Source: Escherichia phage AV115. Taken from it: a DNA stretch of 64,000 bases. Position numbers and translations under genes: made by a program. The stretch lies in the sequence record OR352945.1; one strand, 5' to 3'. Below are positions 1 through 50,128 of this stretch, in pieces. Every line of letters starts with the position of its first letter. The first letter of the stretch is position 1. The notes below the pieces were generated by a model. It worked only from the letters and a program-made list of their open reading frames with translations, was not told the DNA's origin and made no database searches.

Positions 1-2317
<2,317 letters not shown>

Positions 2318-2344
2318 AAATAAAGCAAATTAAGAGGAATTAAA

Positions 2345-4327
2345 ATGGCACTTCTCTCTCCGGGCGTTGAGCTCAAAGAAACTACCGTACAGAGTACTGT
2401 AGTTAATAACTCCACTGGTACTGCTGCCCTGGCTGGAAAATTCCAATGGGGACCTGCATTCCAGATTAAACAAATCACTGATGAAGTTGCATTGGTTGAT
2501 ATGTTTGGTACTCCTAATACGGATACAGCAGATTATTTCATGTCTGCTATGAACTTCCTTCAATATGGTAATGACCTTCGTGTCGTACGCGCAGTTGATC
2601 GTGATACTGCTAAGAACTCATCTCCTGTGGCAGGCAATATTGAATTCACAATCTCTGCTACTGGTAGTAACTATGCGGTTGGTGATAAAATTATCGTTAA
2701 GTATTTGACCGAAACTGTTGAAGCAGATGGTTATGTCACTTCAGTTGATGTCGATGGTAAAATTCTTAACATTTATATCCCAACCGGTAAAATTATTGCT
2801 CGTGCAAAAGAAATTAATGAATATCCGGCATTGGGTTCTAACTGGACCGCCGAAGTTGCCAGTTCTTCTTCTGGACTTTCTGGCGTTATTACAATTGGTT
2901 CTATCGTAACTGATTCGGGTATTCTGTTAACTGAAGTTGAAACTTCTGAAGAAGCTATTACTTCTCTAACTTTCCAAGAATCTATTAAAAAATATGGTGT
3001 CCCAGGCGTAGTTGCTCTTTATCCTGGTGAACTTGGCGACCAGCTCGAAATTGAAATCGTATCTAAAGCAGACTATGACAAAGGTGCTTCAGCCCAGTTA
3101 AAAATTTATCCTGATGGTGGTACTCGTGCATCTACTGCTAAAGCAATCTTTGGGTATGGCCCACAAACTGATGACCAATATGCAATTATCGTTCGTCGTA
3201 ACGATGCTGTAGTTCAGAGCGTAGTTCTTTCTACTAAACGCGGTGAACGAGATATTTATGGTAGTAATATCTTTATTGATGATTTCTTTGCTAAAGGCGC
3301 AAGCAATTATATTTTCGCTACTGCACAAGGTTGGCCAAAAGGTTTCTCTGGCGTAATCAAACTGGGTGGCGGCTTATCATCTAATGAAACTGTTGACGCT
3401 GGTGATTTAATGGAAGCTTGGGATTTGTTTGCTGACCGCGAATCTGTTAATGCGCAGTTGTTTATTGCCGGTTCTTGTGCAGGTGAATCTTTAGAAGTTG
3501 CTTCTACAGTTCAGAAACATGTTGTAGCAATTGGTGATTCTCGCCAAGATTGCTTGGTTCTTTGCTCACCGCCACGTGCAACTATAGTCGGTATTCCTGT
3601 TAATCGTGCAGTTGATAATCTGGTTGATTGGCGTACTGCGTCAGGAACTTACACTGATAATAACTTTAATGTAAGTTCTACTTATGCCGCTATTGACGGT
3701 AACTATAAATATCAATATGACAAATATAATGATGTGAATCGTTGGGTTCCATTAGCTGCTGATATTGCTGGTCTTTGTGCTCGCACAGACAATATTTCTC
3801 AGCCTTGGATGTCTCCTGCCGGTTATAACCGTGGACAAATTCTTAATGTTATTAAGCTTGCAATTGAAACTCGCCAAGCGCAGCGTGATCGTTTGTACCA
3901 GGAAGCTATTAACCCTGTTACTGGTACCGGTGGTGATGGGTATGTTCTGTACGGTGATAAAACTGCCACTTCTGTTCCTTCACCATTTGACCGTATTAAC
4001 GTTCGTCGTTTGTTCAATATGGTTAAAACGAACATTGGTTCAGCATCTAAATATCGCCTGTTTGAATTGAACAACGCATTTACCCGTTCTTCTTTCCGTA
4101 CAGAGACTTCTCAATATCTACAGGGTATTAAAGCTCTCGGTGGTGTATATAACTTTAAAGTTGTTTGTGATACTACCAATAACACACCAGCAGTTATCGA
4201 CCGTAATGAGTTTGTAGCTACTTTCTACTTACAACCTGCAAGATCGATAAATTATATTACGTTGAACTTTGTAGCAACAGCAACGGGTGCCGATTTCGAC
4301 GAACTAATTGGTGCTGTAGGTGCCTAA
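2345..4327 (+). CDS. 18: contractile tail sheath protein
   Basis: 660 aa, T4 gp18 length and gene order; SD AGAGGA upstream; late promoter at 2310. Confidence 0.95.
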   Translation: MALLSPGVELKETTVQSTVVNNSTGTAALAGKFQWGPAFQIKQITDEVALVDMFGTPNTDTADYFMSAMNFLQYGNDLRVVRAVDRDTAKNSSPVAGNIEFTISATGSNYAVGDKIIVKYLTETVEADGYVTSVDVDGKILNIYIPTGKIIARAKEINEYPALGSNWTAEVASSSSGLSGVITIGSIVTDSGILLTEVETSEEAITSLTFQESIKKYGVPGVVALYPGELGDQLEIEIVSKADYDKGASAQLKIYPDGGTRASTAKAIFGYGPQTDDQYAIIVRRNDAVVQSVVLSTKRGERDIYGSNIFIDDFFAKGASNYIFATAQGWPKGFSGVIKLGGGLSSNETVDAGDLMEAWDLFADRESVNAQLFIAGSCAGESLEVASTVQKHVVAIGDSRQDCLVLCSPPRATIVGIPVNRAVDNLVDWRTASGTYTDNNFNVSSTYAAIDGNYKYQYDKYNDVNRWVPLAADIAGLCARTDNISQPWMSPAGYNRGQILNVIKLAIETRQAQRDRLYQEAINPVTGTGGDGYVLYGDKTATSVPSPFDRINVRRLFNMVKTNIGSASKYRLFELNNAFTRSSFRTETSQYLQGIKALGGVYNFKVVCDTTNNTPAVIDRNEFVATFYLQPARSINYITLNFVATATGADFDELIGAVGA

Positions 4328-8752: not shown

Positions 8753-10321
8753 ATGACTACTATCAAAACTAAAGCTCAGCTCGTAGACAAATGGAAAGAA
8801 CTGCTGGAAGGTGAAGGCCTGCCGGAAATCGCTAATAGCAAGCAGGCTATTATCGCTAAAATCTTCGAAAACCAGGAAAAAGATTTCGAAGTATCCCCTG
8901 AATATAAAGACGAGAAAATCGCTCAGGCATTTGGTTCTTTCTTGACCGAAGCTGAAATTGGTGGTGACCACGGTTATAATGCTCAGAACATCGCAGCGGG
9001 TCAAACCTCTGGTGCAGTAACCCAAATTGGGCCGGCAGTTATGGGTATGGTTCGTCGTGCTATTCCTAATCTGATCGCTTTTGATATTTGTGGTGTTCAG
9101 CCTATGAACAGCCCGACCGGTCAGGTATTTGCTCTCCGTGCAGTATATGGTAAAGACCCTATCGCTGCTGGCGCTAAAGAAGCTTTCCATCCGATGTATG
9201 CCCCGGACGCGATGTTCTCTGGTCAGGGTGCTGCTAAGAAATTCCCAGCTCTGGCTGCTGACACTACTACTGTTGTAGGTGATATCTATACTCACTTCTT
9301 CCAAGAAACTGGTACTGTATATCTGCAAGCTTCTGCTGTCGTAACACTTGATTCTGGTGCAACTGATGCAGCTAAATTAGATGCAGAAGTTAAGAAACAA
9401 ATGGAAGCTGGTGCACTGGTAGAAATCGCTGAAGGTATGGCTACTTCTATCGCTGAACTCCAGGAAGGTTTCAACGGTTCTACCGATAACCCATGGAATG
9501 AAATGGGCTTCCGTATCGATAAACAAGTTATCGAAGCTAAATCTCGCCAGCTGAAAGCTGCTTACTCTATCGAATTAGCACAAGACCTCCGTGCAGTACA
9601 CGGTATGGATGCTGATGCTGAACTGAGCGGTATTCTGGCTACAGAAATTATGCTAGAAATCAACCGTGAAGTTGTTGATTGGATTAACTACTCAGCACAG
9701 GTTGGTAAATCTGGTATGACCCTGACTCCTGGTTCTAAAGCTGGTGTATTTGACTTCCAGGACCCGATTGATATCCGTGGTGCTCGTTGGGCCGGTGAAA
9801 GCTTTAAATCTCTGTTGTTCCAGATTGATAAAGAAGCAGTTGAAATTGCTCGTCAAACCGGTCGTGGTGAAGGTAACTTCATTATCGCTTCCCGTAACGT
9901 AGTTAACGTACTGGCTTCAGTTGATACTGGTATTTCTTACGCTGCACAGGGTCTGGCTTCCGGTTTTAATACCGACACTACTAAGTCTGTATTTGCCGGT
10001 GTACTTGGTGGTAAATACCGCGTATACATCGACCAGTATGCTAAACAGGATTATTTCACCGTTGGTTACAAAGGCGCTAACGAAATGGATGCAGGTATTT
10101 ACTATGCTCCTTACGTTGCACTTACCCCACTGCGTGGTTCCGATCCTAAGAACTTCCAGCCGGTAATGGGCTTTAAAACTCGTTACGGTATCGGTGTTAA
10201 CCCGTTTGCTGAAAGTTCCCTGCAGGCTCCAGGTGCTCGCATCCAGTCCGGTATGCCGTCTATCCTGAACAGCCTTGGTAAGAACGCTTACTTTAGACGC
10301 GTCTACGTTAAAGGAATTTAA
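8753..10321 (+). CDS. 23: major capsid protein
   Basis: 522 aa; near-identical to T4 gp23 throughout. Confidence 0.97.
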   Translation: MTTIKTKAQLVDKWKELLEGEGLPEIANSKQAIIAKIFENQEKDFEVSPEYKDEKIAQAFGSFLTEAEIGGDHGYNAQNIAAGQTSGAVTQIGPAVMGMVRRAIPNLIAFDICGVQPMNSPTGQVFALRAVYGKDPIAAGAKEAFHPMYAPDAMFSGQGAAKKFPALAADTTTVVGDIYTHFFQETGTVYLQASAVVTLDSGATDAAKLDAEVKKQMEAGALVEIAEGMATSIAELQEGFNGSTDNPWNEMGFRIDKQVIEAKSRQLKAAYSIELAQDLRAVHGMDADAELSGILATEIMLEINREVVDWINYSAQVGKSGMTLTPGSKAGVFDFQDPIDIRGARWAGESFKSLLFQIDKEAVEIARQTGRGEGNFIIASRNVVNVLASVDTGISYAAQGLASGFNTDTTKSVFAGVLGGKYRVYIDQYAKQDYFTVGYKGANEMDAGIYYAPYVALTPLRGSDPKNFQPVMGFKTRYGIGVNPFAESSLQAPGARIQSGMPSILNSLGKNAYFRRVYVKGI

Positions 10322-10350
10322 TGCTTTAACGTTAAAATACATAACCTTAT

Positions 10351-10368
10351 GGGAGACTCCGGTCTCCC
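10351..10368 (+). terminator. intrinsic terminator after gene 23
   Basis: GGGAGAC-tccg-GTCTCCC followed by T-rich tract. Confidence 0.6.
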
Positions 10369-10378
10369 ATTCTTGTTT

Positions 10379-11038
10379 CTATAGCTTAAAACAATCATCG
10401 CGTTCATTAATCCAATTTCTTATAGTTTTTGCGGATACGTTAAAGAATTCGGCAGCGTAATCGTAGTGGTTAAATTCATGGCCTTTAATAGAAATATCCA
10501 CAAATACAAATTTCTTACCTTTATTAGAATTCTTTCTAATTTTTGCTTTATGCTCTTCTGATAGTTTTCTACCTTTAAGATGAGAATCTCTATTTTTATA
10601 AAACTTTTTATTTGCTATAGATTTGTTTTCTCGATGTTCTTTAGATTCTTTAGAACCTAATTTCTTTTTAGATATTTTGGCCCGAACTTCTTCAGTCATA
10701 CCAGCTTTTGTCTTTTCGGATAACATCTCACGATACCCAGGTTCCTGTAAAGCTACTATAACAGGATTACCCTTGCCGCCTAAGGCTGCATTATAAGTAT
10801 CTGTTCTCATGACAAAAGCCTCGTCAACTAGTTCGGCTTCCTTAGCATACATCTCTTCAGATGTTTCGAAATTGAAAAGGATTTCCTTTTTAAAATTCTC
10901 TAAGCCGTATTTCTTTATGGATTTTACTATGTTAACCCCGGAACCCATATAAGAATCGTTAACATCTGTGGTGGCATGGGCTCCAACATAAATCTTGTTA
11001 TTAATGAGATTGGTTATTTTGTAAATTAAATAATTCAT
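10379..11038 (-). CDS. segD: GIY-YIG homing endonuclease (SegD-like)
   Basis: 219 aa; N-terminal IYKITNLINNKIYVG GIY-YIG motif, K-rich C-terminal DNA-binding region; same 23-24 intergenic position as T4 segD. Confidence 0.8.
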   Translation of the reverse strand: MNYLIYKITNLINNKIYVGAHATTDVNDSYMGSGVNIVKSIKKYGLENFKKEILFNFETSEEMYAKEAELVDEAFVMRTDTYNAALGGKGNPVIVALQEPGYREMLSEKTKAGMTEEVRAKISKKKLGSKESKEHRENKSIANKKFYKNRDSHLKGRKLSEEHKAKIRKNSNKGKKFVFVDISIKGHEFNHYDYAAEFFNVSAKTIRNWINERDDCFKL

Positions 11039-11041
11039 ATT

Positions 11042-11308
11042 TTATGCTGCTTTGACACGTCGGTTGATGATATCACGGAAGTCAATACGATTTTCTTGGA
11101 TTTTCAGCCAGTTACCAGATTTGTCTTTGGTATGGGTAGAATATTCACCGTTCCACCAGAAGTCAGTTTCATAAGCCAGGGCTTCGTATTTCTTAACCAA
11201 TGCATTAACTGCATTACCGTTAGGATTGGTACCAAATTTTTCTACCAGAGCTTTGATGTCTTTGTCAAGGTTAGAAAGTGTGGTACGGATAAAGTTTAAT
11301 TTGTTCAT
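11042..11308 (-). CDS. hypothetical early protein
   Basis: ORF track starts at 11323 but SD GAGGAG precedes ATG at 11308 (MNKLN...); early promoter directly upstream. Confidence 0.45.
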   Translation of the reverse strand: MNKLNFIRTTLSNLDKDIKALVEKFGTNPNGNAVNALVKKYEALAYETDFWWNGEYSTHTKDKSGNWLKIQENRIDFRDIINRRVKAA

Positions 11309-11337
11309 TTTTAATCTCCTCATGTTTTGATAGGTCT

Positions 11338-11367
11338 ATAGTAACACGACGCTTTTTGTGTGTAAAC
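11338..11367 (-). promoter_or_regulatory. early sigma70-type promoter (GTTTAC-N18-TACTAT)
   Basis: Minus strand GTTTAC ... TACTATAGAC followed by conserved leader ...CATGAGGAG... and ATG 11308. Confidence 0.6.
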
Positions 11368-11373
11368 CACTTT

Positions 11374-11381
11374 TATAAATA
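11374..11381 (+). promoter_or_regulatory. late promoter TATAAATA (gene 24)
   Basis: Exact TATAAATA ~31 nt before gene 24 ATG. Confidence 0.7.
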
Positions 11382-11411
11382 AAATTATATTCTCAATAAG
11401 GAAAAAATGCA

Positions 11412-12692
11412 ATGAGTAAAATCCAAAAATTATTGCGTGAATCTACAACGTCTACTAGCAACTCAATTGGTCGCCCAAATCTCGTTGCTTTGACTCGCGC
11501 TACGACTAAATTAATATATTCTGACATTGTAGCAACACAAAGAACTAATCAACCTGTTGCTGCTTTTTATGGTATCAAATATCTTAACCCAGATAACGAA
11601 TTCACATTTAAAACCGGTGCTACTTATGCGGGTGAAGTTGGATATGTAGACCGAGAAAAAATTACTGAACTCACAGAAGAATCAAAAGTCACACTAAATA
11701 AAGGTGATTTTTTCAAATATAATAATATCGTCTATAAAGTGTTAGAAGATACACCATTTGCAGATATTCAAGAAAGTGATCTAGAATTAGCTCTTCAGAT
11801 TGCAGTCGTTCATTTAAAGGTACGGTTATTTTCAGATGCAGCGGTAACAAGCAAATTTGAAAGCTCTGGTAGCGAAATTTCTGATGCAAGATTCCAGATT
11901 AATAAATGGCAAACTTCAGTCAAATCTCGTAAACTTAAAACTGGCCTCACAGTTGAATTAGCGCAAGATTTGGAAGCGAATGGATTTGATGCCCCTAACT
12001 TCTTAGAAGATTTGCTTGCAACTGAAATGGCAGATGAAATTAATAAAGATATTCTTCAGTCTTTAATTACTGTATCGAAACGTTATAAAGTTACTGGAAT
12101 TACTGACACTGGATTTATTGACTTGAGCTATGCATCCGCTCCAGAAGCAGGTCGTTCATTATATCGAATGGTGTGTGAAATGGTATCACACATTCAAAAA
12201 GAGTCAACTTATACTGCAACGTTTTGTGTAGCCTCAGCTCGTGCAGCTGCTATTCTTGCTGCTTCTGGTTGGTTAAAACATAAGCCGGAAGATGATAAGT
12301 ATCTTTCACAAAATGCTTATGGATTCTTGGCAAATGGATTACCTCTTTACTGCGATACCAACAGTCCGTTAGATTATGTTATTGTGGGTGTTGTAGAAAA
12401 TATCGGCGAAAAAGAAATTGTAGGGTCCATCTTTTATGCTCCATACACTGAAGGAGTAGATTTAGATGACCCGGAACATGTCGGTGCATTTAAAGTTGTA
12501 GTTGATCCAGAAAGCTTGCAACCGTCTATCGGATTATTGGTTAGATATGCTTTATCAGCAAATCCTTACACAGTAGCAAAAGACGAAAAAGAAGCGAGAA
12601 TAATTGATGGCGGGGACATGGATAAAATGGCAGGACGTTCAGACTTGTCTGTTTTACTCGGTGTTAAATTGCCTAAAATTATTATAGATTAA
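11412..12692 (+). CDS. 24: capsid vertex protein
   Basis: 426 aa; gp23 paralogue at T4 gene 24 position; late promoter at 11374. Confidence 0.93.
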   Translation: MSKIQKLLRESTTSTSNSIGRPNLVALTRATTKLIYSDIVATQRTNQPVAAFYGIKYLNPDNEFTFKTGATYAGEVGYVDREKITELTEESKVTLNKGDFFKYNNIVYKVLEDTPFADIQESDLELALQIAVVHLKVRLFSDAAVTSKFESSGSEISDARFQINKWQTSVKSRKLKTGLTVELAQDLEANGFDAPNFLEDLLATEMADEINKDILQSLITVSKRYKVTGITDTGFIDLSYASAPEAGRSLYRMVCEMVSHIQKESTYTATFCVASARAAAILAASGWLKHKPEDDKYLSQNAYGFLANGLPLYCDTNSPLDYVIVGVVENIGEKEIVGSIFYAPYTEGVDLDDPEHVGAFKVVVDPESLQPSIGLLVRYALSANPYTVAKDEKEARIIDGGDMDKMAGRSDLSVLLGVKLPKIIID

Positions 12693-12693
12693 T

Positions 12694-12719
12694 AAAAAGG
12701 GACCGTAAGGTCCCTTTTT
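12694..12719. terminator. bidirectional terminator between gene 24 and rnlB
   Basis: A5-GGGACC-gtaa-GGTCCC-T5 between convergent genes. Confidence 0.7.
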
Positions 12720-12721
12720 CG

Positions 12722-13720
12722 TTATGATACTAATTCAATCCATGCAGGACGCAGAACATCTTGCACCATTCGGACTAATTCTTTCTTAACAAGATTCGGA
12801 TTATCAGATGATGTTAATACAATACCTTCACGAGAAGTTTCTTCCAGAATATCTTGAACAGTCAATCCCATCACTTTGCCAAAATCTTTTGGAGTTACAG
12901 CCCCAATCTTAGAAATCACATTATTAACACGATTTAATGTAACATAACAAGCTAGAACATCAAGCAAGTTTTTGTCAATTTCGGTTAATGGAACCTGAGT
13001 TTTAATAGGCTTATCAGACTTTTTCTTTTCACTGAATTTAGAGTTCTTGCACTTAATAGCTACACGAGTACCGTTTGGCAGCCATTTAGGGAAACAAGGC
13101 TTCAGAACATAACCTTCCGCCGTATTATCGCCAATAACATTAGCATCAAATACACAATTATTTGCTTCTACAAGGTCTTCTGACGCAGTAGCATTATAAG
13201 CGGCTAAAACGGAATCAAGGTCATTTGGAATCATGATAAGAGAATCAAATGTTCCACGACCAAGCATTGGTGCCATTTTAAAACCGAATTCATTACAGAA
13301 ATCTTGCATTTCATAATCGGTCAAATACGTATTATCACCACTTTCTGTATTGATAAGGATATCGAACACATAAAAATCTTTTTCACCGTAGTCAACACCT
13401 TTCTGGATTCCACCACCAGCGAATTCACCGAATACTTGATATGATACTGCTCGATCTGCATGCATTAATTCCTGAACGGCTTTAATAGCTTTATCATACT
13501 TCTTGAGTACGATTTCATAGCCGTAAAAATCTTCTGCTGGAAGAATAGGGCCTGTGCGCTTGGCGCATGTGACGTTGTCACGTTCAATTATTAACGAGAA
13601 GTTAGTCCCATGGATTTTCTCACGTGCTACCCAAACACCAGTAGTCAAACCATTAGTGTAGAGTTTTTCAATAAACTTAGAGTTGTAGTGGTTTTCAAGA
13701 CTGCTGTATTTCTTAAACAT
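12722..13720 (-). CDS. rnlB: RNA ligase 2
   Basis: 332 aa; nucleotidyltransferase motifs (KIHGTN), T4 RnlB length and position. Confidence 0.88.
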
Positions 13721-13839
13721 AAATCACCATTATAAATAATAATATCAAAATAATTAGCAGAGACTCTATCTCCGACCCGATGTTTAATTTGAATGGATAG
13801 AACCTAGATTCATTATACCATCAAAAAATGTAAAGCATA

Positions 13840-14091: not shown

Positions 14092-14294
14092 TTCTTCACC
14101 TTTTTGTTAATCAAACGTTTACGGTATACAACTTTTTCTTTTACTTTAAACTTTGACCGAGCTGTCTCGGCTTTAGTCCATAGTAATCCAACTTCTTTAG
14201 GTTGTAAACCAATTTTTTGAGCAATTTCTACGAATGAAAATCCCGCCTCATGTAATGTATAAACTTCAACTTCAGCTCTCATAATCAATCCCAT
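14088..14294 (-). CDS. hypothetical protein
   Basis: 68 aa ORF, basic C-terminus; co-oriented with rnlB. Confidence 0.4.
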   Translation of the reverse strand: MGLIMRAEVEVYTLHEAGFSFVEIAQKIGLQPKEVGLLWTKAETARSKFKVKEKVVYRKRLINKKVKK

Positions 14295-50099: not shown

Positions 50100-50128
50100 A
50101 TACTAACACATCCAGGTAAGAAGTAAAC
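50100..50128 (-). promoter_or_regulatory. early sigma70-type promoter
   Basis: GTTTAC-N17-TAGTATAGAC on minus strand, preceded by hairpin 50160-50177; leader CAACAACATGAGGAAA. Confidence 0.6.

Follow-up and report, generated by a model that had tools for sequence, protein, structure and literature searches.

Two minus-strand genes lie between genes 23 and 24 in the window, the 64,000-nucleotide stretch of Escherichia phage AV115 (OR352945.1) that was analysed as a whole: a segD-like gene for a free-standing GIY-YIG homing endonuclease and, upstream of it, a small gene for an 88-residue protein. The coordinates of both genes and of the associated signals are collected in Table 1. Over positions 10000–11900 the window is 100% identical to AV109 (Mosigvirus, Tevenvirinae; GenBank OR352939), in which the two coding sequences are annotated as "SegD homing endonuclease" and "hypothetical protein"; that much is already known from public records. 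AV114 and AV116 are as close to the window as AV109 in the region examined, and for the end of gene 24 and for rnlB (12692–13725) the coordinates in the window and in the AV109 annotation are 3–5 nt apart. An earlier note had placed a SegD-like GIY-YIG gene of 219 codons antisense between genes 23 and 24 and, next to it, an 88-aa frame starting at ATG 11308 behind an early promoter and leader of its own. The open reading frame and its profile matches bear out the former, and the promoter together with the GAGGAG motif the latter.

Table 1. Features of the gene 23–24 interval and its flanks, in window coordinates
Feature	Position	Strand	Basis or remark
Gene 23, major capsid protein	8753-10321	plus	left flank
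GC-rich hairpin ATGGGAGAC-loop-GTCTCCCAT	10349-10370		shared by two converging transcripts, that of gene 23 and that of segD and the small ORF
segD-like free-standing GIY-YIG homing endonuclease gene, 219 aa	10379-11038	minus	open reading frame, profiles, SegD identity, dN/dS
Inserted cassette, 668 nt	10384-11051	minus	alignments of seg+ and seg- genomes
Small early gene, 88 aa, PHROG 6003	11042-11308	minus	open frame, profile match, dN/dS
Shine-Dalgarno GAGGAG, 7 nt upstream of ATG 11308	11316-11321	minus	read from sequence
T4-type early (sigma-70-like) promoter GTTTAC-N17-(TG)TTACTAT	11338-11367	minus	promoter scan, consensus, conservation
Gene 24 late promoter TATAAATA	11374-11381	plus	31 nt upstream of gene 24 ATG 11412
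Gene 24, vertex protein	11412-12692	plus	right flank

The hairpin at the far end of the unit is its sole strong one and is kept alike in relatives that carry the endonuclease at this locus (seg+) and in those that lack it (seg-). Its folding scores differ little between strands (z = -3.8 for minus, -4.05 for plus), and it was scored as a plus-strand terminator. Because the T-tail is good on the plus strand only, the hairpin would act mainly as the terminator of gene 23; termination of the early unit at the same place is uncertain, the U-tail being poor on the minus strand. At the opposite end the late promoter of gene 24 stands back to back with the A/T-rich region upstream of the early promoter. 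A search of Rfam over 10000–11800 gave no match.

The early promoter upstream of the small gene consists of a -35 element GTTTAC, a spacer of 17 nt and TACTAT with a TG extension, and as TTTACA-17-TACTAT it fits the PeSL promoter consensus of T4-like phages, TTTACW-N17-TAYWAT (PMC4122927). It is kept at the same position in all relatives that bear the small ORF and in T4, and it would be transcribed early, by the unmodified host RNA polymerase. The window contains 13 matches to GTTTAC-N16-18-TANNNT where 3.2 would be expected, and ten minus-strand copies look like a single family with a common GTG(T/A)TACTAT. Near-identical early promoters on the minus strand have their -35 hexamers at 14209, 26708, 33249, 36701, 38827, 40233, 41416, 50128 and 54099. 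The leader of the small-ORF promoter, AGACCTATCAA..CATGAGGA, recurs at the copies at 50128 and 26708, and the three also have the leader stretch AGACCTATCAACAACATGAGGA in common. The family copies elsewhere in the genome are candidate recombination cassettes.

The 219-residue protein was matched by PHROG 314 (homing endonuclease family; 5e-54), by the homing endonuclease (HEase) models of PADLOC (1.6e-22) and, over residues 5–214, by TIGR01453 (group I intron endonuclease, NCBIfam) at 57.4 bits for a cut-off of 56.05. It shares 58% of its residues with T4-type SegD along the full length, and the motifs LIYKI...KIYVG can be read in its sequence. Matches to the Pfam families GIY-YIG (PF01541) and SegE_GIY-YIG (PF19835) stay below the curated cut-offs. 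The C-terminus, which is conserved with T4 SegD, gives sub-threshold Pfam matches to NUMOD3 (residues 156–176) and to a helix-turn-helix (187–213), and the TIGR01453 alignment reaches to residue 214; a sequence search found no solved structure. The gene is intact in 37 of 37 carriers, with a decayed copy in none, and its dN/dS against relatives is 0.05–0.17; both segD and the small ORF are under purifying selection. The segD gene is moreover a mosaic: its first 300 nt hold only 7–9 differences among AV109, IME08 and 04086 (window 10395–10781 compared), in the DNA-binding half 27–65 of 240 positions differ and IME08 and 04086 have a 12-nt insertion, and phage mobillu has the reverse pattern with a divergent 5' end.

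The frame of the small gene opens at ATG 11323, which would give 93 residues, and all homologues begin at the conserved ATG 11308. The upstream start was rejected, lying as it does within ATGAGGAG, the stretch that supplies the Shine-Dalgarno motif for the conserved one. The dN/dS of 0.03–0.15 argues that this is a real gene. Its product matches PHROG 6003 with residues 1–88 against a 90-position profile (1.2e-48), and homologues of this family are found at the 23–24 locus in Dhakavirus, Gaprivervirus, Mosigvirus and a metagenomic T4-like contig. The protein is basic in all alleles (pI ~9.5), has no cysteines and is invariant at positions that include K3, F6, L11, L14, N30-G31-N32, A45 and Q71; AlphaFold2 predicts a helix-helix-beta hairpin-helix fold (pLDDT 90.6). 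No family match was obtained in Pfam, NCBIfam or PADLOC and no relative in a profile search of PDB sequences, and the only significant Foldseek match among PDB and viral models was the family's own homologue from rV5-like phages. Literature searches with the ORF names and the PHROG number returned nothing. The remark in the earlier note that the frame has no recognisable function thus still stands after profiles, structure prediction and structure search, none of which gave a relative of known function. A profile search of 1.84 billion cluster representatives at E <= 0.001 gave 10 matches, of which five (P0009, P0015, P0016, P0019 and P0020) are full-length members and P0007 is a fragment; the others are spurious or chimeric, P0021 and P0022 being discarded as spurious repeat proteins and P0023 as a chimeric entry. 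The family appears from these searches to be tiny and confined to phages. In rV5-like phages the homologue lies at unrelated loci, in runs of small genes of unknown function.

The 88-aa protein is probably dispensable, since T4 does without it and the RB69 reference record has a disrupted frame for it. There (NC_004928, segment 604–844) the ORF is split into two fragments, ORF189c and ORF188c, by two indels (+1 and -1 when set against JS09 and AV112), and RB69 has either a pseudogene or old sequencing errors at this place. As the likeliest role we tentatively propose that of an accessory protein, made early, which would bind a host macromolecule in host take-over or counter-defence and be no partner of the endonuclease; the chances of this fall somewhat short of even. 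A reading in which the protein would instead be a functional partner of the endonuclease, as regulator, inhibitor or specificity factor, could draw on the tight bicistron in one reading frame (TAA AAT ATG) and on a basic character compatible with nucleic acid binding; it is hardly credible given that most genomes with the 88-aa protein are without the endonuclease, that rV5-like phages carry the protein at unrelated loci and that T4 SegD exists without it.

The early promoter, leader and small ORF behave in these alignments as one module that is swapped between Dhakavirus and Mosigvirus. The window holds a JS98 (Dhakavirus)-type allele in a Mosigvirus backbone, and most Mosigviruses hold an RB69-type allele. 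Compared with the window, the Dhakavirus MX01 is 96–99% identical from the hairpin to the promoter (10296–11370) and 52–92% identical in genes 23 and 24. The Mosigvirus AV112 has the opposite distribution, with capsid genes 98–100% identical, an ORF stretch at 41–59% and an ORF protein at 31%, so that alleles only 31% identical occur within flanks that are 98–100% identical. In phage mobillu the native Mosigvirus promoter is joined to a Dhaka-type ORF by a crossover within the conserved leader. Most Tequatroviruses are without the module and have an 83-bp gap with only the late promoter and the hairpin, the late promoter being the sole promoter element kept there. The gap thus occurs in four states: empty; with promoter and ORF; with promoter, ORF and segD, as in the window; and with promoter, leader and segD, as in T4, T6 and 51 other records. 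As a separate observation, tandem gene 24 paralogues stand beside the locus in IME08 (1–2399 of the segment) and in the metagenomic relative (1337–3901), the gene names 24a (JS98) and 24(1) (VR7) imply the same arrangement, and the window has a single gene 24.

The position of the cassette was defined by aligning the seg+ genomes AV109, mobillu, IME08 and 04086 with the seg- genomes SQ17, MX01 and JS98. The cassette runs from the recoded end of the small ORF (its last three codons and the stop), across a spacer of 3 nt, to the last codon of segD, and stands in place of the 10 nt GATTGCATAG of seg- alleles; its junctions are identical in 4 of the 4 seg+ genomes examined, and the 23–24 intergenic length is 1090 nt in seg+ against 432 nt in seg- genomes. 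The small-ORF family occupies the gap in 239 phage records, 37 of them with this endonuclease, which leaves about 200 genomes with the ORF at this locus and no endonuclease, among them SQ17, JS09, AV112 and RB69 (Mosigvirus), MX01 and JS98 (Dhakavirus), VR7 and SP18 (Gaprivervirus) and one metagenomic T4-like contig. Two pairs of genomes carry the argument on the order of arrival. Over 246 nt the ORFs show no difference between AV109 (seg+) and SQ17 (seg-), nor between IME08 (seg+) and JS98 (seg-), whereas the two ORF backgrounds are 20 positions apart. Within either pair the flanking capsid genes are ~98% identical, and the seg- ORFs match their seg+ counterparts until the last 10–20 nt. These identities show that the small ORF is the resident gene and the endonuclease the newcomer, and that the endonuclease has been inserted at least twice at a pre-existing junction of gene and terminator, into different resident alleles. 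An apparently different C-terminus in seg- phages, suggested by tblastn matches that stop at residue 72, was dismissed after direct alignment, which gave one amino-acid change, I87A.

These counts overturn two proposals of the earlier note, that the small ORF is an extra gene at the locus and that it could have come as cargo of the endonuclease: the family holds the gap in all 239 records, and the ORF is found alone in about 200 genomes and unchanged across both seg+/seg- pairs. The note's other suggestion, that the ORF came with the promoter cassette, fared better, as the block is absent from most Tequatroviruses, is swapped between Dhakavirus and Mosigvirus and has a crossover in its leader in mobillu. 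Conservation of the ORF in relatives as a known gene would, by the note's own standard, have spoken against its account, and in part this is the case. Conserved and annotated it is, in all 239 records as a hypothetical protein, so that "known" is the part that did not hold.

The small ORF's TAA is followed after 3 nt by the segD ATG, in frame, and the string TAA AAT ATG (11036–11044) is kept in every seg+ genome examined. Were the stop read through, the small-ORF product would be fused to the endonuclease. The sequence upstream of the segD ATG contains no promoter-like site and no Shine-Dalgarno-like sequence of its own, and no RNA hairpin sequestering the start, of the kind present in other T4 endonuclease genes, was found there (z = 0.36 and 0.62). 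As the cassette brings along no promoter, ribosome-binding site or terminator, segD would be transcribed as the second cistron of the resident early unit. Its translation would most likely be by termination-reinitiation and at low level, the stop and start falling in the overlapping string TAAAATATG. The predicted product is a bicistronic early transcript in which translational coupling would keep the endonuclease scarce.

The distribution of the cassette among alleles was compared with the sequence at its insertion point. With Dhaka (JS98)-type alleles defined as records with an ORF identity of at least 90%, the cassette is present in 37 of 86 of these, in 0 of ~121 RB69-type and in 0 of 32 Gaprivervirus-type alleles, and the latter two types have a different sequence from stop to hairpin. 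In all seg+ alleles the end of the ORF is recoded, from K-I-A* to K-A-A* or K-A-E*, and substitutions cluster directly beside the insertion. Restriction to one allele type and recoding of the last codons together suit an element with site specificity, the target of which would lie across the 3' end of the ORF and be destroyed by insertion. The junction sequence near AAGATTGCATAGTATAGAAAC in SQ17 and JS98 is a concrete candidate for this site. The recoded final 10 nt of the small gene would probably abolish the endonuclease's own target and so make seg+ genomes immune, while cleavage followed by recombinational repair would carry the element into the unoccupied sites of relatives that co-infect the cell. 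A variant in which co-conversion with segD dragged the Dhaka-type allele into Mosigvirus was set aside, with some reserve, because SQ17 has the identical allele with a seg- junction.

Spread by homing is the step at which a rival account has most to be weighed. The nearest relative to have been characterised, T4 SegD, is reported to cut DNA and not to home its own gene (Sokolov et al. 2018, Virology 515:215), and the presence/absence pattern could be produced by ordinary homologous recombination without cleavage. The endonuclease of the window might likewise have ceased to home, with its patchiness due to homologous or promoter-cassette recombination and its sequence kept for another reason or only recently inactive. 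The swapping of the intergenic block between genera, as in MX01, has no need of an endonuclease, and segD is itself a mosaic of lineages. We nevertheless think this unlikely: the same 668-nt cassette has the same junctions and very short co-transferred flanks in two backbones or more, it is strictly limited to one allele type, all 37 copies are intact at the low dN/dS given above, and substitutions gather beside the insertion as expected for a change to target-site immunity.

The order of events has two challengers, both of which fail on the seg- genomes. That the two genes are adjacent, co-oriented and 3 nt apart, and that a Dhaka-type ORF allele in Mosigvirus-type flanks comes with segD in 29 records and without it in 1, would suit a single composite mobile element with the ORF as its cargo; this is very improbable in view of the many genomes with the ORF family and no endonuclease at the locus, of the match of the SQ17 and JS98 ORFs to those of AV109 and IME08 up to their last nucleotides, and of T4-type phages that have segD without the ORF. 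Still less likely is a history in which segD was ancestral at the locus and repeatedly lost by deletion, with the seg- state derived. Homing endonuclease genes do cycle through gain, decay and loss, and the direct fusion of segD to the leader in T4-type phages indicates that deletions happen here, but the seg- alleles (~200 genomes) share one clean junction with its own 10-nt sequence and no segD remnants, distant alleles (VR7, JS09, the metagenomic contig) go straight from stop to hairpin, and none of the 37 carriers has a decayed copy.

The reading that we prefer, and hold to be probable, is that of a resident early unit into which a spreading SegD-type cassette has inserted, borrowing the promoter, with the ORF independent of the endonuclease. 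The resident unit, antisense to the capsid genes and made up of promoter, leader with strong Shine-Dalgarno sequence, 88-aa gene and shared hairpin, is at home in Mosigvirus, Dhakavirus and Gaprivervirus. A bolder extension, speculative and in our estimate probably wrong as a whole, is that the 88-aa protein is an early effector of new fold directed against a host function or defence, that its alleles are exchanged as a cassette and that the SegD-type endonuclease, tied in an unusual way to an early unit by translational coupling, targets the 3' end of one allele type; were it true, the endonuclease would bias which arms-race allele is inherited in mixed infections. Mildly new, beyond the public annotation, are the anatomy of the insertion, the recurrent and allele-specific insertion of a SegD-family gene, the downstream place of segD in an early unit, with translation probably coupled to that of the first gene, and the series of four states through which it connects with T4 segD. 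This series is a clean natural one for a long-studied element. The locus further offers population-level evidence that a SegD-family gene spreads, though T4 SegD is reported to have failed to home in the laboratory, and it illustrates how a homing endonuclease gene that stands free can appropriate an early transcription unit already in place without bringing signals of its own. As a mobile element of phages it is of an ordinary kind, and it leaves the current understanding of such elements unchanged; the 88-aa protein adds one more conserved, confidently folded early phage protein that can be screened for host-directed or anti-defence activity.

Among known systems T4 segD comes closest. It shares the 23–24 locus, the antisense orientation, the amino-acid identity noted above, a hairpin that follows the stop at once and, at the corresponding position, a promoter of early type. 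In T4, which is without the small ORF, the ATG of segD takes in the alignment the place of the small ORF's ATG, directly behind promoter and leader, whereas in the window segD comes second and is preceded by no Shine-Dalgarno sequence. The DNA-binding part at the C-terminus has diverged, and the target may differ. T4 SegD is reported not to home, and the distribution found here points to recurrent insertion. In T4 itself (NC_000866, segment positions 964–992) the element TTTACA-17-TATTAT with a TG extension, with 10 of 12 consensus matches, lies directly upstream of segD. A 2010 review found no segD-specific promoter identifiable (PMC2988022); the present comparison suggests that T4 segD does have one. 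T4 SegF, SegG and MobE, which home with co-conversion and marker exclusion, resemble the window's gene in being free-standing, placed beside conserved genes, present or absent among relatives and linked to junction polymorphisms. The T4 endonuclease genes reviewed have middle or late promoters, never early ones (PMC2988022), unlike the early unit here. The I-TevI-type group I intron endonucleases (TIGR01453) have an N-terminal GIY-YIG domain, which the present protein shares, and a NUMOD3-like repeat linker and C-terminal helix-turn-helix, which it may share, its Pfam NUMOD3 and HTH matches being sub-threshold; the present gene differs in standing free, outside any intron, and in its below-threshold Pfam GIY-YIG match.

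The resident part of the unit has its own counterparts. RB69ORF188c, JS98 orf173 and VR7ORF190c belong to the same family (PHROG 6003; 31–99% identity), occupy the same locus in the same orientation and do not differ in kind from the window's ORF. PeSL cassettes (Arbiol 2010; Comeau 2014, PMC4122927) share with the unit an A/T-rich upstream region, a promoter and a Shine-Dalgarno sequence, followed by the beginning of a small ORF that varies. Like the unit, they are blocks associated with replacement and found in one close relative but not in another, and the crossover in phage mobillu falls inside the cassette. The unit departs from them in that gene 24 begins, with its late promoter, directly upstream of the early promoter, where a PeSL cassette has its stem-loop, and in its location among conserved capsid genes instead of a hyperplastic region.
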